This document shows, in pieces, positions 10,428 to 37,057 of a stretch of 64,000 nt of DNA; the stretch's first letter is position 1, and each line of letters begins with the position of its first letter. The translations under genes and the position numbers were made by a program. Under the pieces are notes generated by a model. It had not been told where the DNA came from. It was given only the letters and a program-made list of their open reading frames with translations, and made no database searches. Where the stretch lies: assembly GCA_016220095.1 (NCBI GenBank), contig JACRIJ010000048.1, positions 5,296 through 69,295 of the forward strand. The letters run 5' to 3'. The DNA is from Planctomycetota bacterium (lineage in GTDB: Bacteria > Planctomycetota > MHYJ01 > JACQXL01 > JACRIJ01).

Positions 10428-10444
10428 ATTTGTAATCCTCCCTG

Positions 10445-10864: not shown

Positions 10865-10897
10865 TTTTCTATTCTCCTAAAAGTTGGGCGTCCTTGT

Positions 10898-12487: not shown

Positions 12488-12544
12488 AGGTAGCGGTGTT
12501 TATAATCGGCAGGGATTGATGACAATCAAACCCTGCGTAGATAA

Positions 12545-13210: not shown

Positions 13211-13673
13211 ACACGGCGTCCTGTTTATTGTTCAGGGAATTACAGAATTTTACGGTTGCGATTTCGTCAAGGAACTTGCGCTCTTCAATGTTCAGCTGGT
13301 ACAAGTAATCCCTGTATTTTTTTTCCTTGAGCTTATCAAGGATTTTTCTTTCCTTGGTTGCCTTTAACAGTTCCGCGCGTTTCCGGGTTTCCTGGATGCC
13401 GAGGGCTTTTAGTTCGTTCCGGGCGTTAATGAGTTTTGCCTCAAGCGCCCTCTGGTACCTTTTCTGCGCGAGCACGTCCTGTATCTTTACCGAGGCGGAC
13501 ACGAGTTGCCTGAGGTCATCGGCCGCGCCGGCGATCAGTTTTACGATTGAATCAATCTTCGCCTGCTGGTCAAACACTTTCTTCTGGGCGATCGCAAGCT
13601 CGCGTTTTTTTTCTTCTTCAACCTGTTTTTTGTATTGAAGTACCGTTTCAAGCTGGAATTTAAAGGTTTTCAT
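13203..13673 (-). CDS. fliJ: Flagellar export chaperone FliJ
   Basis: 156 aa coiled-coil protein located after fliI. Confidence 0.75.
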   Translation of the reverse strand: MKTFKFQLETVLQYKKQVEEEKKRELAIAQKKVFDQQAKIDSIVKLIAGAADDLRQLVSASVKIQDVLAQKRYQRALEAKLINARNELKALGIQETRKRAELLKATKERKILDKLKEKKYRDYLYQLNIEERKFLDEIATVKFCNSLNNKQDAVYA

Positions 13674-13676
13674 TGT

Positions 13677-14987
13677 TTATTGCCCTGCCAGTTCAAGTAA
13701 CGATTGCACGGTTTTTTCGTAGGTGGTTTTTTCCGCTATATCCTGTTTCAGGAAGGCGTTGATTTTCGGCATAAGTTTTATCGCGTGGTCTATATCGGGG
13801 TTTGAGCCGTGCACGTAAGCTCCGATATTTATCAGGTCTTCGGCATTCCTGTAAGTTGCCATTATTGATTTTATTTTAACCGCCGCTTCGCGGTGTTCCC
13901 TTGATACGACTTCTATCATAAGGCGGGAAACGCTCATAAGCGGGTCAATTGCCGGGTAGTGGCCTTTGGTGGCGATATCGCGCGACAGCCATATATGGCC
14001 GTCAAGGATGCTTCTGGCGGTATCGGCGACGGGTTCGTTTATGTCATCCGATTCAACAAGCACCGTATAGATTCCAGTAATACTGCCTTTGTCGGACGTG
14101 CCGGCGCGTTCAAGCAGTTTAGGCATCATGGCAAAAACCGATGGGGTGAACCCTTTGGTGGCAGGCGGTTCTCCGATGGACAATCCGATTTCGCGCTGGG
14201 CTATGGCCATGCGCGTGATGGAATCCATAAGGAGCAGAACGTCCATGCCCATATCGCGGAAAAATTCGGCTATGGCAGAGGCGGTAAAAGGCGCTTTTAC
14301 GCGCAGGAGCGCGGGTTCATCCGAGGTGGCGACCACTACGATGGACCTTTTCAGGCCTTCTTTGCCGAGGTCTTTTTCAATGAATTCCCGGACTTCCCTG
14401 CCGCGTTCGCCGACGAGGCAGATGACGTTGACCTGCGCTTCGGTATTCCTTGCCACCATGCCCATGAGCACGCTTTTGCCGACGCCGCTTCCGGAGAAGA
14501 GCCCTACCCGCTGGCCCCTGCCGCAGGTGGAAAGCCCGTCAATGCATTTTACGCCGGTGGCAAGCGGTTTGGAAATACGCTGGCGGGAAAGCGCCTTCGG
14601 GGGCGCGGCGTAAATGAAATTTTTCCTCGCGGTATTTACCGTTGGTCCGTTGTCAATGGGGTTTCCCCGCGCGTCAACGATTCTGCCGAGGAGTTCCATC
14701 CCTATGCTGACGGATTGAATGTTATTTTTGCAGTTTACGATATCGTTTCTTTTAATGCCGCGCATTTCGCCGAACGGCATGAGGAGAAGGCGGTCTTCCC
14801 TGAAACCTACGACTTCGGTTTCTATGGTTTGGTTTGAATGCGACGGCTGGATTGAGCAGATACTTCCTACGGGCGCGGAAAGCCCTTCGCATTCTATGAT
14901 AAGCCCTATGATCTTAGAGACTCTTCCCGAGAGCCGCATGGATGTGGCGTTGTCCAGTATTTCCAATTCTGTCTGAAATATTGACAT
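13677..14987 (-). CDS. fliI: Flagellum-specific ATPase FliI
   Basis: 436 aa. Walker A is GSGVGKS and Walker B is LLLMDSITR. It is an F1/T3SS-ATPase-like protein. Confidence 0.95.
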   Translation of the reverse strand: MSIFQTELEILDNATSMRLSGRVSKIIGLIIECEGLSAPVGSICSIQPSHSNQTIETEVVGFREDRLLLMPFGEMRGIKRNDIVNCKNNIQSVSIGMELLGRIVDARGNPIDNGPTVNTARKNFIYAAPPKALSRQRISKPLATGVKCIDGLSTCGRGQRVGLFSGSGVGKSVLMGMVARNTEAQVNVICLVGERGREVREFIEKDLGKEGLKRSIVVVATSDEPALLRVKAPFTASAIAEFFRDMGMDVLLLMDSITRMAIAQREIGLSIGEPPATKGFTPSVFAMMPKLLERAGTSDKGSITGIYTVLVESDDINEPVADTARSILDGHIWLSRDIATKGHYPAIDPLMSVSRLMIEVVSREHREAAVKIKSIMATYRNAEDLINIGAYVHGSNPDIDHAIKLMPKINAFLKQDIAEKTTYEKTVQSLLELAGQ

Positions 14988-14988
14988 C

Positions 14989-15693
14989 CTATTTATTGCC
15001 TTTCAGGATAATTTTATAAAGTTCATCAAGCTGGACTGCCACGGAGGCGTCCACCGAGCCGGTGCGGGATTTTACGACGACGGAACCTTTCGGAAATTTC
15101 GTATCCTGCACGAGTTTGATGGTTTTTATTTCCGAAAAGGTTTTTTGTATTTCCGGGAAAAAGGTTTCCGCTGACACGAGGTCGTCCGGGCTCATGAGTA
15201 TTTCAAGGTCGGTTTTCTGGGCGGTAAGTTCTATGGCCTTGATTATATTGGCGTTGACGATGTCGGGGTCAAGTTCTATCTGGCGGTTGAGTATTTTTTC
15301 CACTATTTTGAAAGAGAGTTCAACAAGGTCTTTGCGCGCGTTTTCGGACTGGTATCTGGATTTTTCCTCAAGGGCATCAATCAGTTTGCGCAGTACGGCG
15401 ATAAGTTCTGCGGATTCCTTGCGGACCTGCTGGACGGCGCTTTCATTGCCGGATTTCCTGCCGTCAACCGTGCCTTTCTGCATGCCGTCCTGATACCCTT
15501 TTTCGTATCCCTGCTTGTAAGCGTCCGCGGAGATGGTTCTGGACTGGGCGACAGCGTCCGTTATGAGTTCCCTAGATTTAATCTTGGCGTTTTCCAGGAT
15601 GCTCTTCGCGTGGAGCACTATGTCCGTAAGGTCAAGGGGTTTTAATTCGCCCTTGAGAGAATCGGCATCTTTGTTTTTAATTACTTTAACCAT
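14989..15693 (-). CDS. fliH: Flagellar assembly protein FliH
   Basis: 234 aa charged helical protein lying between fliG and fliI. Confidence 0.75.
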   Translation of the reverse strand: MVKVIKNKDADSLKGELKPLDLTDIVLHAKSILENAKIKSRELITDAVAQSRTISADAYKQGYEKGYQDGMQKGTVDGRKSGNESAVQQVRKESAELIAVLRKLIDALEEKSRYQSENARKDLVELSFKIVEKILNRQIELDPDIVNANIIKAIELTAQKTDLEILMSPDDLVSAETFFPEIQKTFSEIKTIKLVQDTKFPKGSVVVKSRTGSVDASVAVQLDELYKIILKGNK

Positions 15694-15703
15694 ATAAATA
15701 CTT

Positions 15704-16717
15704 TTATACTATAATTTCTTCTTCGCCGCCGCGGCCCTGGATGAAGAGTTCGCCTTTTTCTTCAAGCTGTCTTACGACGTCCACGATGGACTGCTGGGCC
15801 GCTTCAACGTCCGCGAGGCGCACGGGGCCCATGAATTCTATTTCTTCTTTTATCATATCCACGGCGCGTTTGGACATATTCTTAAAGAATTTTTCCCTCA
15901 GTTCCACGCTGGCTGTTTTGAGGCCCAGGGCGAGAGTATTGGGTTCAACTTCTTTAAGGAGGTTTTGTATGCCCCTGTCATTGACAAGGAGGATGTCGTC
16001 AAATACGAACATGAGTTTTCTTATCTGGTCTGCGAGTTCCGGGGCCTGTTCTTCAAGCAGGTCAAGTATATTGCGTTCGGTGGACCTGTCGGTGAGGTTG
16101 AGGATTTCCGCGGCGGTCTTTACGCCGCCGGATTCCTTTAGTTCTTCGGTGACGAAAGACGCGAGTTTTTTTTCAAGCGCCTGTTCCACCTGTGATATTA
16201 CTTCAGGGCTCGTATGTTCCATTGAGGCGAGCCGTTTAATGACTTCAAGCTGTTTCTGCGAAGGAAGCCCGGCGAGGATTTCGGCGGACTGCGAGTGGGA
16301 CAGGTGGGCGAGTATCAGCGCGATGGTTTGCGGGTGTTCGTTCTGCATGAAGGTCAGGAGGTTTTCGGCGTCGGCCTTCTGGAGGAATCCGAACGGCGCC
16401 ATTTTCATGGACTGTTCTATCATTTCAAGGATGCGCTGGGTTTCTTCTATGGGGAGCACCTTTTCAAGAAGGGAGCGAGCGTAGGATACGCCGCCCTGTT
16501 CCACGTACTGTTGGGCCATGGAAAGGTGGTAGAATTCTTCAATAGTTCTGTCGCGCTCTTCCTTGGAGACGTTTTCAAGCTTTGCTATTTCCAGGCCGAC
16601 AAGTTCTATGGTTTCTTTATCAAGCTGGGACAGGACTTTCGCGGCCATATCCTGTTCAAGCGAAACCATGAGAATGGCGGCTTTTCTGATGCCCTGTTGT
16701 AGAGTAATTTCTGCCAT
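15704..16717 (-). CDS. fliG: Flagellar motor switch protein FliG
   Basis: 337 aa. The C-terminal torque-generating region is conserved (FVFDDILLVNDRGIQNLLKEV). Confidence 0.9.
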   Translation of the reverse strand: MAEITLQQGIRKAAILMVSLEQDMAAKVLSQLDKETIELVGLEIAKLENVSKEERDRTIEEFYHLSMAQQYVEQGGVSYARSLLEKVLPIEETQRILEMIEQSMKMAPFGFLQKADAENLLTFMQNEHPQTIALILAHLSHSQSAEILAGLPSQKQLEVIKRLASMEHTSPEVISQVEQALEKKLASFVTEELKESGGVKTAAEILNLTDRSTERNILDLLEEQAPELADQIRKLMFVFDDILLVNDRGIQNLLKEVEPNTLALGLKTASVELREKFFKNMSKRAVDMIKEEIEFMGPVRLADVEAAQQSIVDVVRQLEEKGELFIQGRGGEEEIIV

Positions 16718-16729
16718 ATAAATCAGACC

Positions 16730-18343
16730 TCAACTTTTAATCCATCTTTTGACTAAATTGGCGGCAACCCTCGGGTTCTTTTTGACCGTATCTTTAACCC
16801 ATTCGCGCATCTGTGCGATTTTCATGTCGGGCGCGGGAATTGCGAGTTCGGGTATTTCAATCTGCGGCAATTCCGCGGGCGGTTCCATTTCTTTTTTGGC
16901 TTTTTCAAGTTCCTTCATGAGTTCGGTGGGCATTGATTTGCGTATGACGAATCTGTAACCGATGAAGAGCAGGGTGAGCAATATTGCCAGCAGGGCGATC
17001 TGGGGCCCGTATTTGCCGAGCATATCGGTAGCGGTTTCCACGCCGGACGGTTCCTGGAAAGTTTCGGGTTCAGGGAAGGACATTGCCGTGATGGAAATCT
17101 TTTCTTCATTATCCATGCCGCATATCCTCGCGACCTGCGTTTTCCATGTTTTGATATTTTCATCAAGCTGTGCCTGCGCGTTCTTTTTGTCAGCTGCTTT
17201 GCCGCCGGGCAGTAACAGCGCTTTTTCATACGGGACAACGATTGCGATGGAGGTGTCTTTTATCGTACCCGGAGGCACTTCGCTTTCCGTAAGCGTTTTG
17301 GGATAGACGTCAGATGTTTCCGTTTCCGAAGAGGATGTTTTCATGGGTATTTCGCCGCCTCCGGAAGACGGGTTTGTTACGGAAAGGGGCGAGGAAGGCG
17401 ATGACTGGCCTACGAGCCCGCTCTTATCCGTCATTCCGGGTATGCCGCCGGTGCCGGCGCCCAGGACCGGTTCGGATGTTTCCGTGGAAGTGCTGTTTAC
17501 TACAATGGCTACGTGTTCTTCGGAATGTATTTTTTGTTTGGTGAAATCCATTTTCAGGTTGACCTTGACTACCACGGGGAAAAACTGCGCGAAGAAAGAT
17601 CTGACGCTGTCTTCAAGGAATTTTTCTTCCTTTCGTTTTATGTCAAGGTGTGTGGCGGACTGGAGCGCCATGTCGTCCTTGTCAAGGACGCTGAAGAGAT
17701 TGCCGTCCGCGATAATGGCCACATCCTGCGGTTGCATGGAGCCGAACGCGTTCGCGACCAAATTGGCGATTGCGTTTACGTTTACGGCGGAAAGCGACAT
17801 GCCGGGTTTCAGGGTAAGCATTACGGAGGCCGTTCCGTGGTCTTTATCTTCATTGAATATGAATGAATCCTGCGGTATTTTTTCAACGATTGAGGCGGTT
17901 TTGATGAACGGAAGCATCATAAGATAGCGCCTGAGTTCGCGCTTTTTGCTTACGAGAAGGCGCATATCGCGGCGGTCTTTGCTTTCCGCGAAGCTGTCGC
18001 CGAAGACCCATTCCCAGACGTCTTTGCCTTCGGGCAGTTTGCCTTCGCCGTAAAGTTCCAGGAGCAGTTTAGACCGTTCTTCGGAAGGCACGTAGAGTTT
18101 GCTTTCTTCCACCGAGTACGGGATCCTTTTTTCATCAAGGTATTTCTGGACTTCGGACGCCGCTTCGTAGGTCATTGTCTCCGGCGTAAGAGGCACAAGG
18201 CTGGGTTTGGAGCTCATGGACACGAGCGTGATTATGGTGGCGATGACGGCTACGCAGATGGTCCCGAGGATGAACTGTTGAGAGCGGTTCATTCCCTTGA
18301 CGATGTCCCTTATCTGGTTGAACACTTGTCTGAAAAAATCCAT
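16730..18343 (-). CDS. fliF: Flagellar MS-ring protein FliF
   Basis: 537 aa with N- and C-terminal TM segments. It is preceded by fliE and followed by fliG. Confidence 0.9.
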   Translation of the reverse strand: MDFFRQVFNQIRDIVKGMNRSQQFILGTICVAVIATIITLVSMSSKPSLVPLTPETMTYEAASEVQKYLDEKRIPYSVEESKLYVPSEERSKLLLELYGEGKLPEGKDVWEWVFGDSFAESKDRRDMRLLVSKKRELRRYLMMLPFIKTASIVEKIPQDSFIFNEDKDHGTASVMLTLKPGMSLSAVNVNAIANLVANAFGSMQPQDVAIIADGNLFSVLDKDDMALQSATHLDIKRKEEKFLEDSVRSFFAQFFPVVVKVNLKMDFTKQKIHSEEHVAIVVNSTSTETSEPVLGAGTGGIPGMTDKSGLVGQSSPSSPLSVTNPSSGGGEIPMKTSSSETETSDVYPKTLTESEVPPGTIKDTSIAIVVPYEKALLLPGGKAADKKNAQAQLDENIKTWKTQVARICGMDNEEKISITAMSFPEPETFQEPSGVETATDMLGKYGPQIALLAILLTLLFIGYRFVIRKSMPTELMKELEKAKKEMEPPAELPQIEIPELAIPAPDMKIAQMREWVKDTVKKNPRVAANLVKRWIKS

Positions 18344-18370
18344 ATTATTTAACCCCTTTAATTAAAACGA

Positions 18371-18679
18371 CTATACGCGCATACGCATGATTTCTTCGTA
18401 CGCGTCAACGATTTTATTTCTAAGCTGGATCATCAGTTTGCTGGTGATTTCAGCCTTTTGCGCGGCGGACACGACTTCGGCGATATTGTCCGTTTTGCCG
18501 GTAACGAGGTCGGCGACCGAGGACTGGTATTCTTTCTGGACTTCATTATACTTGTCCATGTAATCCGACAGGATTTCCTTGAAGGATTTTCCGGATTCGG
18601 TCTGCCCTGTTGGAGCGGAAGGCGCCGGGGATATGGGCTGTATTGCCGCGGGTTTAATCGGTTGTATCTGGTCTGCCAT
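18371..18679 (-). CDS. fliE: Flagellar hook-basal body protein FliE
   Basis: 102 aa located after flgC. Confidence 0.8.
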   Translation of the reverse strand: MADQIQPIKPAAIQPISPAPSAPTGQTESGKSFKEILSDYMDKYNEVQKEYQSSVADLVTGKTDNIAEVVSAAQKAEITSKLMIQLRNKIVDAYEEIMRMRV

Positions 18680-18699
18680 ATGGAACTCCTATTATAAAA

Positions 18700-19104
18700 T
18701 CAGGCTAAAAGCCTTATTGTTGTTGAGAATAACTGTTTTGTCACTTCAAATGCCGTGGCGTTCATTTCGTACGCCCTTGCGGCTTCAATGGCGTCAACGA
18801 ATTCAAAAAGCGGGTCTATGTCCGGGAATTTTACGTTGCCGTTTTCATCCGCGTCCGGGTGGTTGGGAATATGGCTCATCTTAAACGCGGGGAATTCCTT
18901 TATTTCCGACACCCTGACGCCCTGATTCGGCATGCCTTTCTCAGGCAGGCCCGTCTGGAACACCGCCCTCTTGGGTTTGTAGGGGTTGACATTGCCGAAG
19001 GCGTCTCTCGTGGATTCTATGTTCGCGTAATTATCCGCGGCCACGTTTAATCGCGCGCGCTGGGCGGTCATGCCGGATGTAAGGACGTCTAAAGTTGAAA
19101 ACAT
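18700..19104 (-). CDS. flgC: Flagellar basal-body rod protein FlgC
   Basis: 134 aa with the rod N-terminal motif SGMTAQRARLNVAADNYANIES. Confidence 0.9.
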   Translation of the reverse strand: MFSTLDVLTSGMTAQRARLNVAADNYANIESTRDAFGNVNPYKPKRAVFQTGLPEKGMPNQGVRVSEIKEFPAFKMSHIPNHPDADENGNVKFPDIDPLFEFVDAIEAARAYEMNATAFEVTKQLFSTTIRLLA

Positions 19105-19568: not shown

Positions 19569-19726
19569 AACTAATCCTTCTAAATACTTGCCAGTTATTG
19601 CATTTGCAGGCCGAGACCCGCGGCCAATGGTCAGTGATCGGTGAAAAAGGTCATAAATTCAGTGGTAGTGACAGTGGAAAAAGATGAACTGAAGATGTTG
19701 ACCACTTATCACTAATCACTGACCAC

Positions 19727-19742
19727 TATACAGTTATGCAAC
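19727..19742 (-). promoter_or_regulatory. Sigma-54 (RpoN) -24/-12 promoter driving the flgB-flhA operon
   Basis: The minus strand reads TGGCACGcaggTTGCA. The -24 element, the -12 element and the GG-N10-GC spacing all match consensus. It lies about 160 nt upstream of the flgB ATG. Confidence 0.7.
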
Positions 19743-19934
19743 CTGCGTGCCAAAAATACAGTTTTCGTGTTTTTGGCGCCACGTAAGGCATAACATGTTT
19801 ATTTTCAGTTGGTTATAGCAGAAATCGCATTTCAGTCACGGGTGCGGATTCCTGCAGAGAGCGGTTTTTGGCAGAAAATGCCGGGGTATTCGGCACTTTT
19901 TGCCGTGTTAAATCAGTTAAGAGCGCTAAGCTCT

Positions 19935-20040
19935 TTTAACCACGAAGCACACGAAGTGCACGAAGAGCGGCTCGTGAAACTCGTGATCTTCGTGGTAGAA
20001 AGCGCTATGACGACGGCTAAATTAGCCACGAATAAATACG
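19935..20040. repeat. Repeat family R4 (CCACGAAG-cACACGAAG-tgCACGAAG ... CTTCGTGG), palindromic CACGAAG motifs
   Basis: Related copies lie at 25995-26040, 32570-32610, 37615-37645 and 53580-53650. Variants 34480-34580 and 26440-26500 replace cacgaag with cacagag. Confidence 0.7.
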
Positions 20041-20136
20041 AACATCGGAATCTTGTGAGCCTCAGCGGTCCTGCGGCTACAACTGGCCACCGGTCACTGT
20101 CCACTGGTTACGGCCTCCGGTTCCCGGATCCCAGGA

Positions 20137-21507
20137 TTACGGCGTTAATTTTTTTATTTTATCTCTCAATGAGCGCTCGGATATGCCGAGGGCCTTGGCT
20201 GTCTTTACACGGTTGCCGTTGAAACTCTCAAGGGCATTTTTAATGGCAATGAGTTCTATTTCTTCCAGCGATTGGATAGCGGTATCGGATTGCGCGGCAA
20301 CGCCTTGAGGCGGAGTTTTTTTCAACATGCATGACAAGTCTGCGGCGTTAAACTCCGCGGCATCCGCCGGGGCAAGCAGGTGCAATCGTTCAATGATATT
20401 AGCCAATTCGCGCACGTTTCCCGGCCAGGGGTAGTTCATGAGCGCCATTTCAGCGTCATGGTTAAAGGATTTTGCCTTGCGCCCGGATTTCTGCGCAATT
20501 AACGCGCAGAAATGCTGTGCGAGTTCCGGTATATCTTCCGCGTGTTCCTTCAGCGGCGGCAGGTGTATCGGCACCACATTCAGCCTGTAAAAAAGGTCCT
20601 GCCTGAACTTGTTATTCTTAATCGCGTTTTCCAGGTTCCTGTTGGTAGTGGCGATAATGCGGACATCAACGGTTTTTGAGAATGAACTGCCGACCTTTTC
20701 AAAGTTTTTTTCCTGCAGTACCCGGAGCAATTTTGCCTGCAGTCCGAGGTCAATTTCACTGACCTCGTCAAGCAGGAGGGTGCCTTTATCCGCCAGTTCA
20801 AATCTGCCTTTGCGGGTCCTGTCTGCTCCGGTAAAGGCGCCTTTTTCATGGCCGAACATTTCGCTTTCAAGCAGGCCTGCTGAGAGCGCGGCGCAGTTGA
20901 CAGCGAAAAATGGCTTATCACGGCGGTTGCTTAGCGCGTGAATGGTTCTTGCGAAGACCTCCTTGCCTGTGCCGCTTTCGCCCGTTACAAGCACGGTGGA
21001 ACCGGAATCGGCAATCTTTTTTGTCTGTTCGTATGCATCGCGCATGACCTTGCTCTTGCCGAGTACAAGCTTATAATCAGCCGTATCCGACAATTGCGCC
21101 CGCAGTCGTTCGTTTTCGCTGATAATGTTATAATGGTAAATAGCCTTTGTCAGCACGATTTCAAGCTGTCCAATGCTGAACGGTTTGGCTATATAATCAA
21201 ACGCGCCTTTTCTTACCGAATCAAGCACGGTTTTTACGGATTCCGCGTCTTTTACCGCGAAATGCGCGGTGATTATGACAACGGGCACGTCGGGCGCTAT
21301 TTTTTTTAGTTCCTCAAGCACTTCCAACCCGTGCATGACCGGCATTATCAGGTCGCAGAATACGCAATGGTAAGTCTGGGTCTTGAATGATTCCAGGGCG
21401 TCCGGGCCGTTTGAAAACGTGCTTACGGAGAAGCCGAGTGTTTTAAGGGAATCCGCCAGGGCGTCCCTTAAAGAATCTACATCGTCAATAACAAGGATGT
21501 TATACAT
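20137..21507 (-). CDS. Sigma-54-dependent response regulator (NtrC/FleR/FlrC-like)
   Basis: 456 aa. It has a receiver domain (CDLIMP), a sigma-54 AAA+ core (GESGTGKE, ESEMFGHEKGAFTGA, GAFTGA) and a C-terminal Fis-type HTH. Confidence 0.9.
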   Translation of the reverse strand: MYNILVIDDVDSLRDALADSLKTLGFSVSTFSNGPDALESFKTQTYHCVFCDLIMPVMHGLEVLEELKKIAPDVPVVIITAHFAVKDAESVKTVLDSVRKGAFDYIAKPFSIGQLEIVLTKAIYHYNIISENERLRAQLSDTADYKLVLGKSKVMRDAYEQTKKIADSGSTVLVTGESGTGKEVFARTIHALSNRRDKPFFAVNCAALSAGLLESEMFGHEKGAFTGADRTRKGRFELADKGTLLLDEVSEIDLGLQAKLLRVLQEKNFEKVGSSFSKTVDVRIIATTNRNLENAIKNNKFRQDLFYRLNVVPIHLPPLKEHAEDIPELAQHFCALIAQKSGRKAKSFNHDAEMALMNYPWPGNVRELANIIERLHLLAPADAAEFNAADLSCMLKKTPPQGVAAQSDTAIQSLEEIELIAIKNALESFNGNRVKTAKALGISERSLRDKIKKLTP

Positions 21508-21588
21508 AGAAAATACGGGATTATGGGGTTACGGAGTTACGGGGTTATGGAGTAGGGGTGAACCCATATGTTCACCCTGTTAAAGAGT

Positions 21589-22401
21589 TCAATTTTTCAG
21601 CGGGAGTATAACGGTAAAGACCGCGCCTTTTTCCGGGTTATTCCGGCCTTCAATGGAGCCCTTATGGGCTTCAATAATCCTGTGGGCTATCGCGAGCCCC
21701 AGGCCGGTTCCTTTGGATTTATTCGTAAAAAACGGCGTAAACAATTTATCGGAGGCATCGGCGGAAATGCCGCACCCGTTATCCGAAATGGACACCGAGG
21801 CTTTGGCATTGTCCATCGTTGCCGCGATGGCTATAGAGCCGTTCTTATCAACCGCCTGCGTGGCGTTAAGGATAATATTTAAAAATACGCGTTGAAGCAT
21901 ATATTGGTCAGCGGAGATATCCATGCGGCCGTCCTGAAATTTTGTTACGACGGAAATATTCTTGTTTTCAATATGCCTTGCGGCGAGCGCGAGGGATTCG
22001 TTTATTACGGCGCGGAGGTCGCAAGGCGCGAAGGCTGGGTTTATTTCCCCGGCAAACGAAAGTATATCTTCCACGGTCGCGTTAAGCGTGTGGATGGCGG
22101 AGATTATCTTATCGGTTACGCCGGCGGAATCGGCGTCATCGGCAAGCCGGCGCTGGAGCATGGACGAATATAGCTCAATGGTGGCAAGGGGGTTTCTTAT
22201 CTCATGCGCCACGCAGGCGGCCATTTCGCCGATGACAGCAAGTCGGTTCTTCCGGCTGAGTTCCTTTTCCAGGCCGACAACTTTTGCCTGGAGGAGCTGA
22301 TTGCTCTTTTCAAGCTCCGTGGACGTCCTTATAAGAACCGGAATCGTTTCCTTCAGGAAATTAATGTCTTCAAGCTGTTTGCCGGATAAATTCTCATTCA
22401 T
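21589..22401 (-). CDS. Cytoplasmic sensor histidine kinase (FleS/FlrB-like), cognate to the downstream response regulator
   Basis: 270 aa with no TM segment. It has an N-terminal coiled coil, an H-box (HEIRNPLATIE) and a HATPase_c domain (GTGLGLAI). Confidence 0.85.
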   Translation of the reverse strand: MNENLSGKQLEDINFLKETIPVLIRTSTELEKSNQLLQAKVVGLEKELSRKNRLAVIGEMAACVAHEIRNPLATIELYSSMLQRRLADDADSAGVTDKIISAIHTLNATVEDILSFAGEINPAFAPCDLRAVINESLALAARHIENKNISVVTKFQDGRMDISADQYMLQRVFLNIILNATQAVDKNGSIAIAATMDNAKASVSISDNGCGISADASDKLFTPFFTNKSKGTGLGLAIAHRIIEAHKGSIEGRNNPEKGAVFTVILPLKN

Positions 22402-22561
22402 ATTAACGAAATATGAAATATGAAAAATGAAGGACGACGTTCGGGTCTCGACTCCCGGATCTCGGACATCGGCCCTCAGGCAACGTCCTTTCGTCTTCCT
22501 TTTTCATTTTTCATCCTCGTTCGTTTAAACGGGCCACGGGAAACGGGTCACGGGCCACGGA

Positions 22562-22984
22562 CTACGGCTTCTGTTTCTTCATATTTGCGTAGGCTGACGC
22601 GGCCTTTTTGGCATTTATAATCTTATCAAGTTCCGAGGAGACGGTTGTTTTTGATTTTTCGGCGAGGGCTACGCATTTATTTTCTTCTTCCATAAGCCGT
22701 TTATGGGCTTCGGTTATTTTATCAAGCAGGGCGTTTACCGAGGCGCGCTGTTCTTCGGGCGCGGAATTCGCGGTTTCCAGCCACTGTTGTTTCAGCGAGG
22801 CAAGCGCCTTGCTGTCAACGTCTATTTCCACGAAGAGCGAATTCTTTTTTTCAAGCAAAGGCATAAGCTGGTTGAAGTTGCCCTGCTGGAACAGCAGGTA
22901 TTGTTCCCCGGCGGTCTTAAGGAGTTCATCGTAATTATTCAGTATTTTTGTCAGGGACCGGCAGAGGTCTTCAAACAGCGGCAT
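22562..22984 (-). CDS. FlgN-like flagellar export chaperone (tentative)
   Basis: 140 aa all-helical protein adjacent to flagellar regulators. The match is at family level only. Confidence 0.35.
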   Translation of the reverse strand: MPLFEDLCRSLTKILNNYDELLKTAGEQYLLFQQGNFNQLMPLLEKKNSLFVEIDVDSKALASLKQQWLETANSAPEEQRASVNALLDKITEAHKRLMEEENKCVALAEKSKTTVSSELDKIINAKKAASAYANMKKQKP

Positions 22985-22987
22985 AAC

Positions 22988-25495
22988 CTATTCTCCTCCA
23001 ACCAAAAGAGTAAGGTCATCCAGTTCTTTTTTCCAGCGCAGGAAGCTCGGGCTGTTGGCGTTTTCAGGGGATGCGTTTGTGAATTTTTCGTAAGCGAACA
23101 AGGCGAGTTCTATGTTTTTTTGCGCGTCAGCGGTGCGGTTAAGGGAATAATAGCATTTAGCTTCCTGTATAAGCGCCCATAGCATTTCGGGCTGGGAATT
23201 GAATTTTTTCCAGGCCGTTGAATACGTGTTCGCGGCGTTCGCATAGTCCTGCAGGTTGAAGAATGCGTCGGCGATATTAAAATAGGAATTCCTGTTCATC
23301 TCGGAATATCCGGGGTAAGAGGCGATGGGTATGCCGTCCCGGCCGTCCAATTTTCCGGTCTCTATGGTGTTGTAATAATCGGCGATGGCGTTTTTCCAGT
23401 CCTGTTTGAGCGAGTATGACTGGGCGCGGTGGTAATACGCGGAAAAAGTGTTTTCCGGGTCATCGTTTTTATAGCGCGTGATGGCCTCGGACAGCGTAAG
23501 AACGGCGCTGGAGATGTCGTTTGTTTTCTTTTCAAAATTTGATGACTGCAGGAGCGCTCTTTTATAATAAAGTTCTCCGAGTTTGAAGATGGACAATTTC
23601 CATTCCGGCGTGAGCGGCGAGAACAAAGTGGAACTGCTCAGTATGTTCAGGAACGCCTGTTCGGCGTTATCAAGGTTACCGGAGAGCATTATGGAATGGG
23701 CTTTTTCGTAATAAGACATGTAGCCGTACGGAGGCGTATAGGGATAAAACGTGATATTTTCGTCAAAGGTTTTGATGGCCTCGCTGTATTGGCCGAGTTT
23801 TTGATAACACATGCCGAGCTTATAGTATGCTTCAGTCCTGTTAAGCGGAAAATGAGTGCTTATGTATTGTTTGAATACGCCGGCCGCCGGGGAGTAGGCC
23901 TCTGCCTGATAGAGCGAATCGCCGGCGGACCACAGATGGATATTGGACGCGGGCGCGGCGGGAGCCGCCTTATAGGCGCTGATAAATGCCTTTGCGGTTT
24001 TGACATAGAATCTTTTTGTCACATTGCGGAGGTCCATGTAATCGCTGGTTATGCCGGACTTAATGGTGGCGCTGTATTCCCTTTCATGCAATTTTGATAC
24101 GTTAAGGTAAGTCCTGCCGAGGAGCGCGTAATTATCCTGCGAAGGGTCAACGGACGTAAGTTTTTCAACCGTATTCATTATTCGCAGGAGCGTTTGCCGC
24201 GAATCCATAGTCGGCAGAATGGCGTCAATTTTGGCGCGGAAGTCTTTTATGAAATCATCGCGGCCCGCGGGGAGTTTTTTAATTTTCTGAAAGGACGACT
24301 CGTAAAGTTCAAGCGATTTTTCAATGAGGTTATTTTTAAAGTAAATATCGGCGAGCTTAAGAGTTGCCAGAAACTGGTATTCGTTGGGAACCTTGCTTCC
24401 GGCCAGAAGGGCCTCAAAGCAGGTATAGGCGTTGGGATAGTCGTTATTGCCGATGTAGGCAAGGCCGAGCGCAAAAGAGAGTTCTGGGAAGGCTTCCTTG
24501 TCGGAGTTACGGGGAAGGACGGGTTGCAGAAGCGCGATGGTATCGGCGAAATTGCCGGTTTTTATAAACAGGTTGGCGATTCTCAGCAAGGCGGTTTTGT
24601 TGTTTTTTTCAAGTTCAAGGATGTTCAAATAGCAAATGTACGCGTGGTTAAGGTTGAAATCAGCCCGGTTGATATTTTCGGAAATGGCGCCTTCAACGAG
24701 CAATTTGGCTATTTCTTCCTGCACGCCCGCGTTTTTATCATAGGCGGCGAGGGCTTTTTTTATCTTATCCAGTCTTTCTTGCACGGCCGCATCGGCGTCT
24801 TCCGCTTTTTCAAATGTAGGCAGAGGGAGCAGGCTGATGCATTCGGCAATCTTAAGGTTAAAAAGCCTTTCATTCGGATAATACTGCTGGAACCTTTTGA
24901 ATTCCGCGAGGGCCTGGGTTGGATTGCCGGAATCCTTGATTTTCTCAATGGAATCCATTATAGCGCCGGACATTTCCGGGACAAAAAAATCGTTTTTGAT
25001 TGCGGATTCAAACATGCCAAGATTAGATTGGAGCGCGTTGGCCGAGGGCATGGTTTCCGCGAATTCCTGTTTATAAGCCGTTAATGCCATAAGGCCCTGG
25101 ATTTCGCCTGTGAACTTATTGCGGGGGAAGCGGGCGATGAAATCAGCGCCTTCTTTCATGGTGTTGACATAATCGTTAAGCATGTAAAGCTGGCGGATTT
25201 TATCGGCTTCAAAGGCGTAGACTTTTTCGTAACGCCCTTTAGACGGCAGGAATAGCGGGACGAGGAGCACGGAAAGAATTGCGAATACAAAGGTAGACAC
25301 CTGCCAGTGTACTGCGCATTTTCGCGCGAACGATGCAAATGTAGGAATAGATTCAATTAAAGGCATAATATTAAAGAAATACTTTTCGTCCTGGTCGTTT
25401 TGCTGCTGAATAACGAAACGACGATACGGATTTTGCCACAGCCCTTCGCTCTGCTCCCTTCGGCACCTCAGGATTGCGACAGGATAAAAGAGCAC
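22988..25495 (-). CDS. Membrane-anchored tetratricopeptide-repeat protein
   Basis: Many TPR-like Y/A/L-rich repeats. The likely true start is the internal Met at 25366 (MPLIESIP... followed by a TM helix). The first 43 codons of the track ORF overlap intergenic repeat sequence. Confidence 0.6.
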   Translation of the reverse strand: MLFYPVAILRCRREQSEGLWQNPYRRFVIQQQNDQDEKYFFNIMPLIESIPTFASFARKCAVHWQVSTFVFAILSVLLVPLFLPSKGRYEKVYAFEADKIRQLYMLNDYVNTMKEGADFIARFPRNKFTGEIQGLMALTAYKQEFAETMPSANALQSNLGMFESAIKNDFFVPEMSGAIMDSIEKIKDSGNPTQALAEFKRFQQYYPNERLFNLKIAECISLLPLPTFEKAEDADAAVQERLDKIKKALAAYDKNAGVQEEIAKLLVEGAISENINRADFNLNHAYICYLNILELEKNNKTALLRIANLFIKTGNFADTIALLQPVLPRNSDKEAFPELSFALGLAYIGNNDYPNAYTCFEALLAGSKVPNEYQFLATLKLADIYFKNNLIEKSLELYESSFQKIKKLPAGRDDFIKDFRAKIDAILPTMDSRQTLLRIMNTVEKLTSVDPSQDNYALLGRTYLNVSKLHEREYSATIKSGITSDYMDLRNVTKRFYVKTAKAFISAYKAAPAAPASNIHLWSAGDSLYQAEAYSPAAGVFKQYISTHFPLNRTEAYYKLGMCYQKLGQYSEAIKTFDENITFYPYTPPYGYMSYYEKAHSIMLSGNLDNAEQAFLNILSSSTLFSPLTPEWKLSIFKLGELYYKRALLQSSNFEKKTNDISSAVLTLSEAITRYKNDDPENTFSAYYHRAQSYSLKQDWKNAIADYYNTIETGKLDGRDGIPIASYPGYSEMNRNSYFNIADAFFNLQDYANAANTYSTAWKKFNSQPEMLWALIQEAKCYYSLNRTADAQKNIELALFAYEKFTNASPENANSPSFLRWKKELDDLTLLVGGE

Positions 25496-25651
25496 AGAGA
25501 CTACGGAGAACGCAACGAATTAGACAGGGACTTAACGAGACTCTAAAGAGATACGACGACGAAACTACAATAGGTATTTTCGACGCTTGCGTTTACGTAC
25601 GCTCTTAAAAATCGTTTTACGTTCTGTGACCTCTGTGGCAAATCGGCACAG

Positions 25652-25966
25652 TTAAGGGTTTTTGATTTCTTCCTTATCAAGCATTTCCTTAACTTCCTGG
25701 AGCGTATGATGGCGCTTAAGGCGTTCAATTTTTGCGAGCCGCTGGAACACCAGTTCCGGATATAAACGGTGCCCGGATTTCGTGCGTTCGGCCTCGGAAA
25801 TAAGGCCGAGCATGGTATAGTTATGCAGGGTTTGGCGCGAGATACCCGTGTAGTGGATGATTTCGCCGATCTTAAAAAGTTTAACGGGAAGCACCACTCC
25901 CGTAGCGGCGAACGCAAGATGCCCGTCTTTCTGTTCAACCTCGGATTCAGCTTGATTTTTTTTCAT
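25652..25966 (-). CDS. MerR-family transcriptional regulator
   Basis: 104 aa with the HTH LFKIGEIIHYTGISRQTLHNYTMLGLI...SGHRLY. The overlapping ORF 25543-25938 is rejected. Confidence 0.65.
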   Translation of the reverse strand: MKKNQAESEVEQKDGHLAFAATGVVLPVKLFKIGEIIHYTGISRQTLHNYTMLGLISEAERTKSGHRLYPELVFQRLAKIERLKRHHTLQEVKEMLDKEEIKNP

Positions 25967-26280
25967 TATTCAATCCCCCGAAATAATTTAAGATTTACGC
26001 AGAGAACAACGTTTTTTGCCACGAAGACACGAAGGACGATTATTCCTGTCACTACGATGACTGATAAGCGATAGCTTTCCCGGCAATTTTTGTGACTTCT
26101 TGGCAAATCCTTTGTTACTTTATATTTTATAAAGTATAAAGTATAAAATTAAGAGGAATTTGTCAAGTAAAATTTTGCATTTCATGAAAAATTTATTTTG
26201 CATAACATGTTGAATTGCAGTCTGTTGTGAGACGTGTGTAGAATTTTGAAAAATTATCGGAAGTTCCGATAATACGAAGG

Positions 26281-26405
26281 AGGAAAAACGAAAAATGAAG
26301 AATGAAGGACGATACGAAAGAATGATAGAATGGCAGGATGATAGAATGTTTTGTAAAAATCTTAATTTTTAAATTCAAAATCTTAAATTTTAATGCCTGC
26401 CCCTT
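26281..26405. repeat. Dispersed intergenic repeat family R1 (gaaaaatgaagaatgaaggacg...agaatgatagaatggcaggatgatagaatgtttt...aatcttaaatttta-gcctgcccc)
   Basis: Other copies lie at 30695-30817 (inverted) and 60474-60592. Fragments lie at 22395-22440, 34585-34630, 56700-56745 and 58955-59045. Confidence 0.8.
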
Positions 26406-26509
26406 ATCGTTTGAAAACCTGTAAAACTCGTCGTTTTCCGTGTATTCTGTGTGTTCTGTGGTAAAAAATTATCGTCGTTTCGTCTTCGTGTGCATTCGTG
26501 TGTATTCGT

Positions 26510-26569
26510 GGCTAATCAGCCGTCCCGCCGTCAAATTACACAGAACCGCACAGATTACGACGAAGGAGG
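26510..26569. repeat. Dispersed repeat family R2 (ggctaatcagccgtcccgccgtcaaattacacagaaccgcacagattacgacgaaggagg)
   Basis: An inverted copy lies at 30618-30680 and a partial copy at 37731-37760. Confidence 0.8.
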
Positions 26570-26835
26570 GAGTACTCTGTTGGGATTTAATGACTGGATG
26601 ATTTGCGATTTAATGATTGAGACGTGCAACGCGTAATCGTTTACCCTGAGGCGGCCCGAAGGGTAAATCATCAAGTCATCCAGTCACCAAATCATTAAAT
26701 TTCCGAAAGGTTTCGTCGTTCAGTCGTTTACTCGCAGTTGTCAATCTGCCTAATCTGTTGCTAAAAAAAAACGGCCTGCCCGCTTTTTCAAGCAGACAGG
26801 CCGTGTAAAATTTGCGTCTATGAACGCCGCGTCAA

Positions 26836-30501: not shown

Positions 30502-30694
30502 GGCAATTATAAAGTTTTTTTTTGTAACACTGGTAAGGCGAAGGAAGCAGGGAGAAGACAGACCGGACGTCCGTGGCCCGTTTAAACGGGAACCGGGCAA
30601 CGGGAACCGGGTGACGTCCTCTCTCCTTCGTCGTAATCTGTGCGGTTCTTTGTAGTTTGACGGCGGGACGGCTGATTAGGGACAATGGAGTTAA

Positions 30695-30817
30695 GGGGGC
30701 AGGCATCAAAATTTAAGATTTTAGATTTGAGAATTAAGATTTTCTAAAACATTCTATCATCCTGCCATTCTATCATTCTTTCGTTCCGTCCGTCCTTCAT
30801 TCTTCATTTTTCGTTTC
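30695..30817. repeat. R1 copy, inverted relative to 26281-26405
   Basis: Together with R2 and R3 copies it forms a composite module of about 300 bp. That module is the inverted counterpart of 26281-26590, and the two flank the lipoprotein gene. Confidence 0.8.
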
Positions 30818-32413
30818 GGCATCAGACGCCGTCAATATGCGCGGTATGAACATCAGGCCTTTTACCACCTGCTGGGAGATGTCGTTTACCATTACGGTTA
30901 TCGGTTTTGCGCCGGTGTCCGTGAGTTTCATTATCCAGAACAGCACCGCTAATCTTGCCACGGAGGTCCACAGGAACAGTATCTGTTGGTAGCACATCCC
31001 GGCTACCTGCACGTTATAAGACTGGATGATGCTCGCCAGGCTTCCTGCCAGCATCGCTGAACTTGCCGCGGCTACGTTGGCAAAACAGGAGAATATCGCG
31101 TAATAGACCTCTTTTCCCCTCTGGGGCGAAACGCCAAGAAGCATATTGAATAAGGCCAGTTCAAGTCCGCCCCATATAATCCCCGATGAAATGTAGTCCC
31201 ACCATATAGGCAGGGTAAAGCCACGCCTTGCAATAATATACATCAGCGGATGGAATACCCCGAAATAAACTGTAAAAAGCATGACGGGCTTGTTGCCGTA
31301 TTTCTGAATCAGCCTTCCCCATATAGGTATGAAGATAATTCTCGCCACCTGCGAAGCCAAAGACATCAGGGCTATGCTTTTGTAAGTCAACGACAGGTTC
31401 TCTATCTGGAACGCGCCCCAGAACGGCCCCGCAAATCCGTTCAGAAAACCCCATAATACAATAAAGAGCAGGAGATTATTGAAGTTTTTATCCTTCCTGT
31501 ATTCCTTCCAGCTGAAAGGTTCCTGCGCCGGAAAGGTCTGTTGCGCCGGTTCCGGCTGTCTGAGTATGAAAAAAAGCGACATAAGAGACGCTATAGCTCC
31601 GGCAATGAACAGGATTGAAAGCCCGACGAATTCCAGCGTCTTAAACGAATTGCCGAATAGATCCATTATCTTATCCGTGAACGGGAAGATATCCATGAAA
31701 AATTTCCCGATGCCTTTTGACATGTCCAGAACGTGGCTCGGGTCGTTTTTGTCCAATTGGAAATTCGCAATGAAGTACCCTGCCGCGAGGGTTATGACGA
31801 ATGAGACTATGGTAACGTACATGTTTCGCCGGCCGAAATAGGTTGAACGGACTTTTTCAGGCACCAGGTCGCTCATCCAGCTTGTCCAGACGTTGCCGCT
31901 TATAGCGAGGCTTGCCCAGCTGATTCCGTAGATGATGAAGAAAATCATGAGTGCCGTGGATTTTACGAAAAAGCACGGTATGAAAGGCACGGTTATCCAG
32001 ATAAACCTTGATACGATGCCTGTGACGGCGGTGACATTTTTCCTGCTGGATATCCTGCTGAGGAATACCGACGTGAAGACCGGTATGATGTTTACGAGCG
32101 GCGGAATGGCGGCCAGGAGCCCGTAATGGAATTCATTCGCGCCTAACAGGATGATGAACCCCAGCGGGTAAATGCCGCCGGTGAGCGCCATGTGCACGGT
32201 CGCGAAACATCCTTCAATAGTTGATATCTTTAACCCGTAACGGGTATCTGTTTTCTTTGTGGACATAACCTTAATATAACGATTTAAGATGTAAGATTGA
32301 AGATATAAGGTAATACTTAAGCTATTTGAAGTAATTCCCCCCTCCCTTGATGGGAGGGGGCATAGGGGGAGGGTGAAAAACATTTTCCCCCTTTCTCTGT
32401 CCCTCTCCCGCAA
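30797..32413 (-). CDS. MFS-type transporter
   Basis: About 12 TM helices. The likely true start is the Met at 32266 (MSTKKTDTRYGLKIST...), which gives 489 aa. The upstream part of the track ORF overlaps the palindromic repeat. Confidence 0.7.
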   Translation of the reverse strand: MRERDRERGKMFFTLPLCPLPSREGGITSNSLSITLYLQSYILNRYIKVMSTKKTDTRYGLKISTIEGCFATVHMALTGGIYPLGFIILLGANEFHYGLLAAIPPLVNIIPVFTSVFLSRISSRKNVTAVTGIVSRFIWITVPFIPCFFVKSTALMIFFIIYGISWASLAISGNVWTSWMSDLVPEKVRSTYFGRRNMYVTIVSFVITLAAGYFIANFQLDKNDPSHVLDMSKGIGKFFMDIFPFTDKIMDLFGNSFKTLEFVGLSILFIAGAIASLMSLFFILRQPEPAQQTFPAQEPFSWKEYRKDKNFNNLLLFIVLWGFLNGFAGPFWGAFQIENLSLTYKSIALMSLASQVARIIFIPIWGRLIQKYGNKPVMLFTVYFGVFHPLMYIIARRGFTLPIWWDYISSGIIWGGLELALFNMLLGVSPQRGKEVYYAIFSCFANVAAASSAMLAGSLASIIQSYNVQVAGMCYQQILFLWTSVARLAVLFWIMKLTDTGAKPITVMVNDISQQVVKGLMFIPRILTASDAETKNEE

Positions 32414-32456
32414 GGGGAGAGGGGATTACTTCAAATGACTTAAATCTTACATCATA
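32283..32456. repeat. Nested palindromic element with G-quadruplex-prone core, in the divergent promoter region between the MFS gene and dodecin
   Basis: The core reads GGGAGGGGGCATAGGGGGAGGG plus CCCTCCC/GGGAGGG hairpins. The outer inverted repeats are taagatgtaagatt/aatcttacatca and tttgaagtaat/attacttcaaa. Confidence 0.7.
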
Positions 32457-32708
32457 GATTTGTTTTCTTTGGTTACGGCTGGTTTGTTTTGCCTTATCTT
32501 ACACTTACACTTTTTCTTTACAAAAAGAATCGTTAATGTTTAAATAGTTTTAATATGTAACTTCTACGTTTTTAGCCACGAGGGCACGAAGACACGAAGG
32601 ACGCATGTTTCAGTACAATGATTGACATTCGGCATTCTTTATGTAAATCTTCATGCCTTCGTGGCAATATATATAGTGGTTGATTTTTATTTTTTAGGAG
32701 TATTTTTT

Positions 32709-32912: not shown

Positions 32913-32976
32913 GTCTGAGGTTTACACCGTGATCCGTTTAAACGGGAACCGGGCACCGGGTCACGGGAAACGGAAA

Positions 32977-34434: not shown

Positions 34435-34627
34435 ATATAAATCCTTTCGTAAGAAGTTCAGGGGATAAAAAAACGTTTTTTAGCCACAGAAAACACAGAG
34501 AGCGCAGAGAACTATGGCTCGTAATTCGTGGCAAAAATGTCATCGTTATTCCTCCGTGATCTCTGTGCGCTCTGTGGTTTCGTAATCGTCCGCCGTCCTT
34601 CATTATTCATTTTTCATATTTCATTTT

Positions 34628-36960: not shown

Positions 36961-37057
36961 TTAATGAAAAACTTCCTAAAAAAGCGTAAATCTATAATCC
37001 GGCAATTATATCAAAAAAAACGCGGTATGCAAGAAAAAAAGGATGACGAAGGTAACC

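Follow-up and report, generated by a model that had tools for sequence, protein, structure and literature searches.

Gene layout and intergenic repeats

The sequence under study, called the window below, is a stretch of 64 kb from the metagenome-assembled genome of a Planctomycetota bacterium (contig JACRIJ010000048.1 of assembly GCA_016220095.1). Most of its genes lie on the minus strand. The region 19570-26640 holds flgB, the gene of a sigma-54 activator (enhancer-binding protein, EBP; 20137-21507), and genes for a histidine kinase, FlgN, a TPR protein and a MerR-family regulator. Within the flagellar operon the gaps stay below 60 nucleotides (nt) and carry no repeats; almost all gaps longer than about 80 nt contain short repeat modules, which are the subject of this report. 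The modules are confined to intergenic DNA and have spread as copies from gap to gap, in either orientation and often as fragments whose ends are inconsistent. The window was read together with about 37 kb of sister-genome DNA from two related populations, V1 (SRR22387810; contigs L001, L561, L562 and L563) and V2 (SRR22388139; contigs L006 and L564), in which coding DNA is 90-95% identical to that of the window.

The original prediction, made from the letters of the window alone, described the gaps as mosaics of at least eight families of dispersed repeats. All eight are real: they were found at or near the predicted positions, far above chance, and there are several further families. What had been missed is the feature that unifies them, namely that almost all of them are tandem micro-arrays of 7-9-nt units set in nested hairpins. 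Nearly every module consists of 2.5-5 imperfect tandem copies of such a unit (up to about 12 nt long). The units reported by Tandem Repeats Finder (TRF) include CACGAAG, CACAGAG, ACGGGNN, GTTACGG, GAAAAAT/GAATGAA, AGAATGAT, ATTTAAG, AACAGATTG, CACTGAT, AATCATC and CTCGCTA. About 39 of the micro-arrays that the program reported (period 7-10 nt) lie in the roughly 7.5 kb between genes, compared with about 12 in 56 kb of coding DNA, which by our own count is a roughly 25-fold higher density. Exact triple arrays of a 5-mer core were intergenic in 12 of 13 cases, with intergenic DNA making up 11.8% of the window, and the hexamers CACAGA, ACGAAG and ACGACG were enriched 6-14-fold between genes.

An array is commonly followed by its own reverse complement, which yields a long imperfect hairpin with helices of 6-9 bp and small internal loops at the spacers; the hairpins at 26429-26562, 32274-32460 and 22405-22514 are nested. 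Segments of 120 nt that fold at z < -3 make up 20% of intergenic but 1% of coding DNA (p = 0.006), and individual hairpins reach z values of -3.8 to -5.9. Some modules are not hairpins, among them an insert between fliG and fliH of V1 (see below) and the R1 composite (z -0.6).

Repeat families and their positions

Dispersed repeats (E < 1e-3) cover 2453 of 7394 intergenic nt (33%), and their copies are 82-100% identical and lie in both orientations. R1 is a composite of about 130 nt in three copies that are 88-92% identical: 26274-26403 and 60459-60590 match at 88.5% over 122 nt, and the third copy (30696-30816, opposite strand) at 90-92%. Its sub-modules also stand alone (22408-22437, 34593-34622, 56711-56740, 58945-59043), and the R1a pattern ATGRANAATGAAGGACG occurs 6-7 times where 0.08 occurrences are expected. 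The 20-nt R2 core CTAATCAGCCGTCCCGCCGT is present in exact form in three gaps, at 26512, 30660 (-) and 37739 (-), against an expectation of 0.01; the exact core had no match in the genome-contig and metagenome-contig collections that were searched. The R2 copies are mosaics. Copies A and C have a common left flank, A and B have a common right flank, and copy B carries one arm only of the hairpin that encloses copy A; the combinatorial reuse in both orientations that had been proposed is thus real.

Copies of R3 lie at 22522-22561, 30571-30616 and 32927-32972; the family was correctly recognised, with one position, 30555, given about 15-20 nt off. Arrays of R4 (CACGAAG) are found at 19941-19995, where they form a palindrome, and at 26016-26038, 32574-32603, 32655-32667, 37607-37641 and 53583-53609. 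The two main copies of R6 (53061-53137 and 56501-56576) are 89.6% identical, with a further copy at 26715-26759 on the opposite strand, and the two R7 copies (37303-37335 and 60615-60647) are 87.9% identical. R8 lies at 21514-21553, 37854-37889 (-) and 1239-1286 (-). An element resembling a miniature inverted-repeat transposable element (MITE) spans 37057-37285 and has a half copy at 56926-57047 (88% over 119 nt). The modules and the one terminator to which the text refers are as follows.

19941-19995: R4 palindrome, (CACGAAGnn)3 facing (nnCTCGTG/CTTCGTG)3; RNA z -5.9, DNA z -4.0.
20082-20121: ACTGGCCACCGGTC-type micro-array 3' of the EBP gene, found by TRF.
21514-21581 (-): R8, in which (CCCCGTAAC)n comes after a small GGGTGAAC...GTTCACCC hairpin; further copies at 1239-1286 and 37854-37889.
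22405-22514: R1a hairpin, GAAATAT/GAAAAAT arms around a variable interior; z -3.8.
22522-22561: R3 arm, cgtttaaacg followed by (ACGGGNN)n; a single arm in the window, a full hairpin in L006 and L563.
25367-25651: MerR/TPR gap (285 nt) with CACAGAG-type arms and a 'gacagggacttaacgagact' module.
26016-26038: R4 arm in the leader of the MerR-family gene; partner arm 26085-26105 degenerate in the window, intact in V1.
26274-26403 (+): R1 composite, consisting of a GAAAAAT/GAAGAAT array, a AGAATGAT array and an AAATCTT array, with GCCTGCCCC at the end.
26429-26562: CACAGA-type outer hairpin around a CATTCGTG array and the R2 core (26512-26531); RNA fold -43.9 kcal/mol, z -2.9.
26581-26705: AATCATC/GATGATT-array hairpin with apex tttaccctgaggcggcccgaagggtaaa; z -5.1; a similar apex at about 53345.
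26715-26759 (-): R6 copy, AACAGATTG array and ACGACT array.
26771-26804 (-): canonical U-tract terminator of the 1182-aa gene, not a module; kept in V2 (L564), where the adjacent modules are replaced.
30571-30816 (-): R3, R2 and R1 copies in series.
32274-32460: nested hairpin, ATTTAAG-type outer arms around two G/C mini-hairpins; z -7.2 for 32327-32446.
32574-32667: R4 array upstream of the dodecin gene, with a short inverted partner; z -5.0; replaced in V1.
32927-32972: R3 copy that occupies the gap between the convergent IMPDH and dodecin genes; V1 has an R1a-type hairpin instead.
34478-34622: CACAGAG hairpin, then an R1a array directly next to the 199-aa gene's stop codon; R3-type hairpin in V1.
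37057-37285: MITE-like element with inverted ends of about 19 nt (cgtcagtaaactgtggcat); z -9.4.
37303-37335 (+): R7, promoter-like, TTGACA, 17-18 nt, TAGTTC/TAAAAT; second copy at 60615-60647.
37607-37889: R4 (37607-37641), R2 (37724-37785) and R8 (37854-37889).
53061-53657: R6 copy (53061-53137, +), R4 (53583-53609) and a CACAGAG array (53631-53657).
56501-56740: R6, CTCGCTA array (56673-56702) and R1a (56711-56740), abutting tRNA-Arg.
58945-59043: R1c hairpin, GATTTAA arms facing AAATCTT arms.
60459-60590 (+): R1 composite copy.

The composition of R7 suggests a shared promoter-like module. Between its first copy and a canonical U-tract terminator (about 37473-37510) lies a short unit (37336-37510, +) that could be a small RNA or a 13-codon open reading frame (ORF). 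The R1a array at 56711-56740 directly abuts the tRNA-Arg (CCT) gene (56745-56819, -), with the half copy of the MITE-like element about 100 nt away. Two genes run into arrays at their 3' ends. At 30797-30830 an R1a array appears from the sequence to give an MFS gene its last codons and its TGA stop, and in V1 (L001, 1925-1945) the gene for a 201-aa protein stops two codons later, inside an array. To judge from such overlaps, array modules at gene ends can alter C-termini and ORF calls.

Turnover between sister genomes

An independent Logan assembly from another read set (L005, SRR12113407) is identical to the window over 3900 nt that include two repeat-rich gaps. The repeats are therefore not an assembly artefact, a possibility that the original prediction had named as fatal to it. 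The same prediction proposed comparing strains for insertion polymorphism, and the comparison of the window with V1 and V2 gave a positive result. Array-filled gaps are unalignable between the genomes, with 4-34% identity compared with 90-95% for coding DNA; the array-free gaps 9945-10040 and 12488-12544 are 98-100% identical. Also kept in the sisters are the sigma-54 promoter of flgB, the promoters of the MerR-family, 1182-aa and ATPase genes, and the U-tract terminator of the 1182-aa gene.

At several sites one module stands in place of another. In the IMPDH/dodecin gap the window's R3 module gives way to an R1a-type hairpin in V1; in the gap between the 199-aa gene and IMPDH, a CACAGAG hairpin of the window corresponds to an R3-type hairpin in V1. 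The MerR/TPR gap measures 285 nt in the window, 104 nt in V2 and 24 nt in V1, with no mutual homology. In the R1a hairpin at 22405-22514 the outer arms are kept in V2 (L006) and the interior is replaced, and orthologous R3 arms differ in the number and order of their units. The segments that replace window modules in the sisters match window modules at non-orthologous sites. The genomes thus have a common library of modules, placed differently at most of the sites compared. In the nearest other relative (L002, IMPDH 72% identical, labelled Ca. Brocadiia) the repeat style differs, and it has one such array only.

Two junctions could be read in detail. Between fliG and fliH, separated by 10 nt in the window, V1 has a block of about 107 nt with (GGACGGACGAR)3, flanked by a repeat of AAGTA. 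V2 has an extra hairpin of 76 nt flanked by ACGAGGA, in which one array (X) and its reverse complement are laid out as X / rc(X) / X, i.e. direct, inverted, direct. The direct repeats at these junctions are of unequal length (5 nt and 7 nt). From the ragged boundaries, the unequal junction repeats and the copies of single arms we infer that template switching (copy choice) and slippage fit the data better than a transposon with fixed ends.

The flgB promoter region

The original prediction placed the R4 palindrome (CACGAAG...CTTCGTG) upstream of a sigma-54 promoter of flgB, where an EBP would bind. The promoter exists: TGGCACGCAGGTTGCA at 19737-19752 (-) matches the consensus exactly, and its counterpart in V1 (L561) has one substitution. 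The position of R4 is also right (19941-19995, about 190-260 nt upstream), and the MerR-family gene has an R4 hairpin in its leader, in V1 as well as in the window. These are the points in favour of reading the modules as operator or upstream activating sequence (UAS) sites of neighbouring regulators, R4 for the flgB activator and others for the MerR-like protein. However, in V1 the palindrome at 19941-19995 is replaced by unrelated arrays, while the promoter is kept together with another dyad, ggcaaaaagtgccgaataccccggcattttctgcc (ggcaaaaagtgcc-N9-ggcattttctgcc; 19872-19906, hairpin z -4.6). This dyad lies about 120-170 nt upstream of the promoter and is near-invariant in L561, as would be expected of a UAS, a dyad some 100-200 nt upstream that is conserved with its promoter; R4 does not behave in this way. 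R4-type arrays moreover occur in at least six unrelated gaps of the window and in many bacterial lineages, beside genes that have nothing in common. Because R4 is not conserved in V1 and its arrays lie in unrelated gene contexts, it is very unlikely to be the EBP site, for which the conserved dyad is the likely and better candidate, judging by its position and conservation. A homologue search with the EBP returned the window's own protein as its sole match. That the modules as a class are gene-specific regulator sites is extremely improbable.

Another array hairpin in the same region has a different history. The flgB leader (19600-19735, -), directly downstream of the sigma-54 promoter, consists of CACTGAT/CACTAAT-type arrays that fold as RNA at -47 kcal/mol (z -4.7), and it is about 96% identical in V1 (L561) where coding DNA is 90-95% identical. 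This shows that the leader hairpin is under constraint, and it has probably been co-opted.

A further array, TATAAAG x 3 (26128-26147), lies at the -10 position of the MerR-family gene promoter (TTGACA, about 17 nt, TATACT) and is kept in V1.

CACGAAG and CACAGAG hairpins in other bacteria

One genome per species was scanned for (CACGARG n1-2)x3, and an inverted partner was counted when it lay within 400 nt. At least 120 records contained the pattern, compared with about 9 expected by chance (an estimate that assumes uniform composition). The records listed come from at least 12 named lineages in many phyla, with a locus G+C content of 38-74%: Acidobacteriota, Planctomycetota, Verrucomicrobiota, Gemmatimonadota, Chloroflexota (including the complete genome of Herpetosiphon aurantiacus DSM 785), Desulfobacterota, Nitrospirota, Methylococcales, Alpha- and Betaproteobacteria, a cyanobacterium and others. 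Among the 165 arrays listed, 61% have an inverted partner and 145 have three units exactly. Immediately 5' of the first CACGAAG unit stand the five bases TT(C/A)AC, with C in 85% of the listed arrays at -1 and A in 73% at -2. The element thus has the form TTCAC-(CACGAAGnn)3 - loop - (nnCTTCGTG)3-GTGAA, with unrelated loops of 8-130 nt, and CACAGAG arrays show the same hairpin form with the same TTCAC foot.

Both hairpins are also present in IMG/VR contigs. Since permuted control heptamers yielded many loci as well (111 and 21), raw counts are not diagnostic, and we used the fraction of arrays with an inverted partner and the conservation of the flank as the test. In IMG/VR this fraction was 31% for CACGAAG, 32% for CACAGAG and 26% for GTTACGG, as opposed to 5% and 1% for the two permuted controls, whose arrays were mostly long, of period 9 and coding-like. 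The contigs L152, L182 and L325 show a mosaic style like that of the window, with further unit families. L325, from IMG/VR, contains nine CACAGAG arrays together with TATCCAG x 23.7, CCAGTAT x 11.3 and a 20-nt repeat (1493-1658 and 10833-10911), which resembles the style of the cyanobacterial short tandemly repeated repetitive (STRR) sequences. Rfam at the gathering score returned tRNA hits only for the window and 16 cross-phylum loci, with spurious sub-threshold hits only at a permissive threshold; BLAST of the consensus CACGAAG arm against 72,556 plasmids gave weak coding hits only; and in the literature we found no description of CACGAAG or of heptamer hairpins in Planctomycetes.

A conserved foot at the base of a hairpin is what one would expect if the modules were non-autonomous transposable elements, which an HUH/Y1 enzyme (RAYT or IS200/IS605-like) would mobilise in trans, in the form of single-stranded hairpins, by reading TTNAC. 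The insertion polymorphism between the sister genomes would fit such a mechanism, and so would the absence of consistent target duplications. The arms, almost always of exactly three units around unrelated loops of varying length, look like conserved ends around variable cargo, and REPINs with their RAYTs provide a precedent (PMC3116915). However, a Pfam scan of 20 window proteins showed no domain of the RAYT (TnpA-REP), Y1 or IS200 type (genes at 19131-39739 and 52577-63385; the genes at 654-19104 and the 4210-aa gene lay outside the scan), and no gene family was enriched beside about 130 cross-phylum elements. The window copies, moreover, are fragments with inconsistent ends, in which single arms have been copied without their partner, and the 5- and 7-nt junction repeats resemble microhomology. 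We regard mobilisation of this kind as rather unlikely.

A related idea, that the arms are the ends of a cassette encoding a GxxExxY nuclease, was dropped. In two unrelated genomes (L009, 898-1355, and L095) a small GxxExxY (PD-(D/E)XK-like) gene lies between inverted CACGAAG arms, but these two ORFs are the only cases and the pattern is not general.

The cross-phylum elements lie more often between convergent than between divergent genes (22 vs 5; hairpins 29 vs 8), often 2-40 nt past a stop codon. Together with the exchange of one hairpin type for another in the IMPDH/dodecin and 199-aa/IMPDH gaps, this would be compatible with hairpins that serve as terminators or stabilisers of mRNA ends, with selection on structure alone and interchangeable modules. 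We doubt this strongly. The hairpins are without U-tracts and, contrary to a terminator, are preceded by T-runs and followed by A-runs; canonical U-tract terminators exist, with the modules beyond them (26771-26804); modules are wholly lost in some gaps, such as the MerR/TPR gap (285, 104 and 24 nt); and the fliG/fliH insert and the R1 composite do not form hairpins.

The arrays might also be bound by an abundant protein, each subunit of which reads one unit of 7-9 nt, e.g. of the ribbon-helix-helix type on DNA or the cold-shock/S1 type on RNA, as part of a global regulatory or nucleoid-structuring network; conservation of the protein would then account for that of the units. The 7-mer core is conserved where the spacers vary, in the window as in many lineages, and the flgB leader hairpin is under constraint. 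Precedents are the heptamers that affect expression in Nostoc (bioRxiv 10.1101/2022.06.06.494920) and the TAACTGA repeats, which have been proposed as S1, Csp or CsrA sites (PMC4679880). Against this, the twelve or more unit sequences in one genome would require many proteins, most sites are not conserved between the sister genomes, and solitary arrays have no significant bias relative to the transcribed strand (40 vs 25). We thus consider a network of this kind quite unlikely.

Other features of the window

The ORF at 39784-52416 (-) encodes 4210 aa and contains many internal repeats of about 135-141 nt (about 46 aa) as well as a 261-nt triplicate at 42455-43237. Two paralogous genes for proteins of 71-72 aa without Pfam match (52577-52792, -, and 53962-54180, -) lie within a 358-nt duplication that is 84% identical. 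Each is preceded by a sigma-54-like promoter (52842-52857 with one mismatch, 54228-54243 with two), and they adjoin a second sigma-54 activator gene (54407-56407). The ORF 63699-64000 (+) runs off the end of the window and has no array modules beside it; its N-terminus presumably resembles an IS4-family transposase. In V1 (L562, 1336-8986) the AAA_14/DUF4143 ATPase gene is followed by other genes than in the window (DUF4011 helicase-like, SMC_N/AAA ATPase, DUF3226, DUF6709), a set that suggests a variable, possibly defence-related island.

Origin of the modules

Of the origins that had been suggested for the repeats, the insertion polymorphism between sister genomes favours elements like repetitive extragenic palindromic (REP) sequences and bacterial interspersed mosaic elements (BIMEs), or relics of a mobile family. 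The explanation that we prefer, and to which we give about an even chance, is that the modules are selfish or neutral filler, similar to REP/BIME on the one hand and to STRR sequences and small dispersed repeats (SDRs) on the other, which has spread by slippage, fold-back copying and template switching and has occasionally been co-opted. The intergenic DNA would then have two layers. One would consist of conserved signals, namely sigma-54 and sigma-70 promoters, the candidate activator dyad and U-tract terminators, and the other of a genome-wide library of small non-coding array and hairpin modules. Modules would lengthen in place by replication slippage and fold-back copying, and they would spread from gap to gap by template switching or by ectopic recombination at the microhomologies that shared heptamers provide, with no need for a dedicated cut-and-paste transposase. 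Where modules are transcribed, they would form stable hairpins at mRNA ends; most would be dispensable, and some, such as the flgB leader hairpin, co-opted.

Several points weigh against this explanation. It draws on the 64-kb window and about 37 kb from the sister genomes, and a trans-acting enzyme could lie elsewhere. There are two direct-repeat junctions only, at which the polarity of insertion and deletion was deduced without an outgroup. The greater conservation of the flgB leader hairpin relative to coding DNA means that not all modules are neutral. Finally, the same 7-mer cores with their conserved TTNAC prefix recur across many bacterial lineages, for which slippage and template switching alone are insufficient and which points to a recognising factor or to horizontal spread. 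The conservation of the CACNRAG hairpin and its TTCAC foot across phyla is not explained by the model that we prefer, and it is the most interesting point of the analysis.

We therefore put forward, as a tentative proposal and with less confidence than the preferred explanation, that the CACNRAG hairpin, TTCAC-(CACGAAG/CACAGAG + 1-2 nt)x3 - loop - (inverse)x3 - GTGAA, represents an undescribed class of pan-bacterial intergenic elements, which owe their maintenance or spread across phyla to a conserved vector or a conserved factor that recognises them, and that the genome studied here holds a hyper-expanded, fast-recombining library of them. If so, this Planctomycetota genome would be a natural system for working out the mechanism. 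As the hairpin with its foot is a sharply defined motif, the makers and readers of such repeats become a testable question.

Comparison with known systems

Among the systems that come closest are the cyanobacterial STRR heptamer repeats, reportedly described by Mazel in 1990, and the SDRs of Nostoc, said by Elhai et al. (2008) to be mobile-looking cores of about 20-27 nt inside tandem heptamers, with nested insertions and preserved hairpins. The window resembles STRR sequences in its tandem heptanucleotide arrays of several unit families, their restriction to intergenic DNA and their sporadic phylogenetic occurrence, features that hold equally for long simple sequence repeats. A direct link is the L325 contig, where CACAGAG hairpins lie next to long, classic-looking heptamer arrays (TATCCAG x 23.7). 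In contrast to the long arrays of STRR sequences, however, the window arrays are short (about 3 units, range 2.5-5) and imperfect, with 1-2-nt spacers, and typically form inverted pairs, and the host belongs to the Planctomycetota. The number and order of units vary between orthologous R3 arms. The 20-nt R2 core within array hairpins (three exact copies) and the nested hairpins (in L006) look similar to the SDRs. No pair of an empty and a filled site was found for this core, and there is no sequence similarity to the SDRs. Long simple sequence repeats with units of 5-11 nt are attributed to Mrazek 2007 in a later paper (PMC4679880), through which we cite them.

Cross-phylum occurrence has a parallel in the TAACTGA repeats, heptamers in 2-6 intergenic copies in Beggiatoaceae, Cyanobacteria and Bacteroidetes, i.e. 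in distant phyla with no evident transfer mechanism (PMC4679880). TAACTGA repeats are direct, mostly located just upstream of start codons and rarely inverted, whereas the CACGAAG and CACAGAG arrays form inverted pairs with a bias to gene 3' ends. Heptamer repeats are known to affect expression in Nostoc (bioRxiv 10.1101/2022.06.06.494920).

Like the REP/BIME sequences (palindromic units, PU) and REPINs of Proteobacteria, the window modules are extragenic, imperfectly palindromic, present in many copies and both orientations, mosaic and variable between strains; REPs, too, lie mostly near gene 3' ends. REP/BIME sequences and REPINs account for a large part of the small variable segments between genes by which strains differ (PMC2884548; PMC3116915). 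They differ from the modules in that the arms of the latter are tandem arrays of 7-9 nt rather than a single palindrome of 20-40 nt, with many unit families in one genome and inconsistent copy boundaries. As to the hallmarks of REPs, the GTAG/CTAC head is not found in the module alignments, and the Pfam result for RAYT was given above.

A likeness to MITEs is limited to the element at 37057-37285, with its inverted ends, strong fold and second partial copy; the array modules have neither fixed ends nor a target duplication of fixed length. Intrinsic terminators differ in the orientation of their T-run, and in the window canonical ones are separate from the array hairpins.

Our results would extend a little-understood phenomenon, heptamer repeats, beyond cyanobacteria and giant sulfur bacteria to the Planctomycetota and many more lineages, and they link tandem micro-arrays to hairpin, REP-like behaviour. 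They also provide a concrete case of near-complete intergenic turnover at a stage when the genes are still 90-95% identical. There is a practical side for metagenome-assembled genomes as well: modules of this type break short-read assemblies, and by extending ORFs or supplying their stop codons they affect annotation. Taken together, the modules combine the tandem heptamers of STRR sequences with the inverted, mosaic and strain-variable character of REP/BIME sequences.

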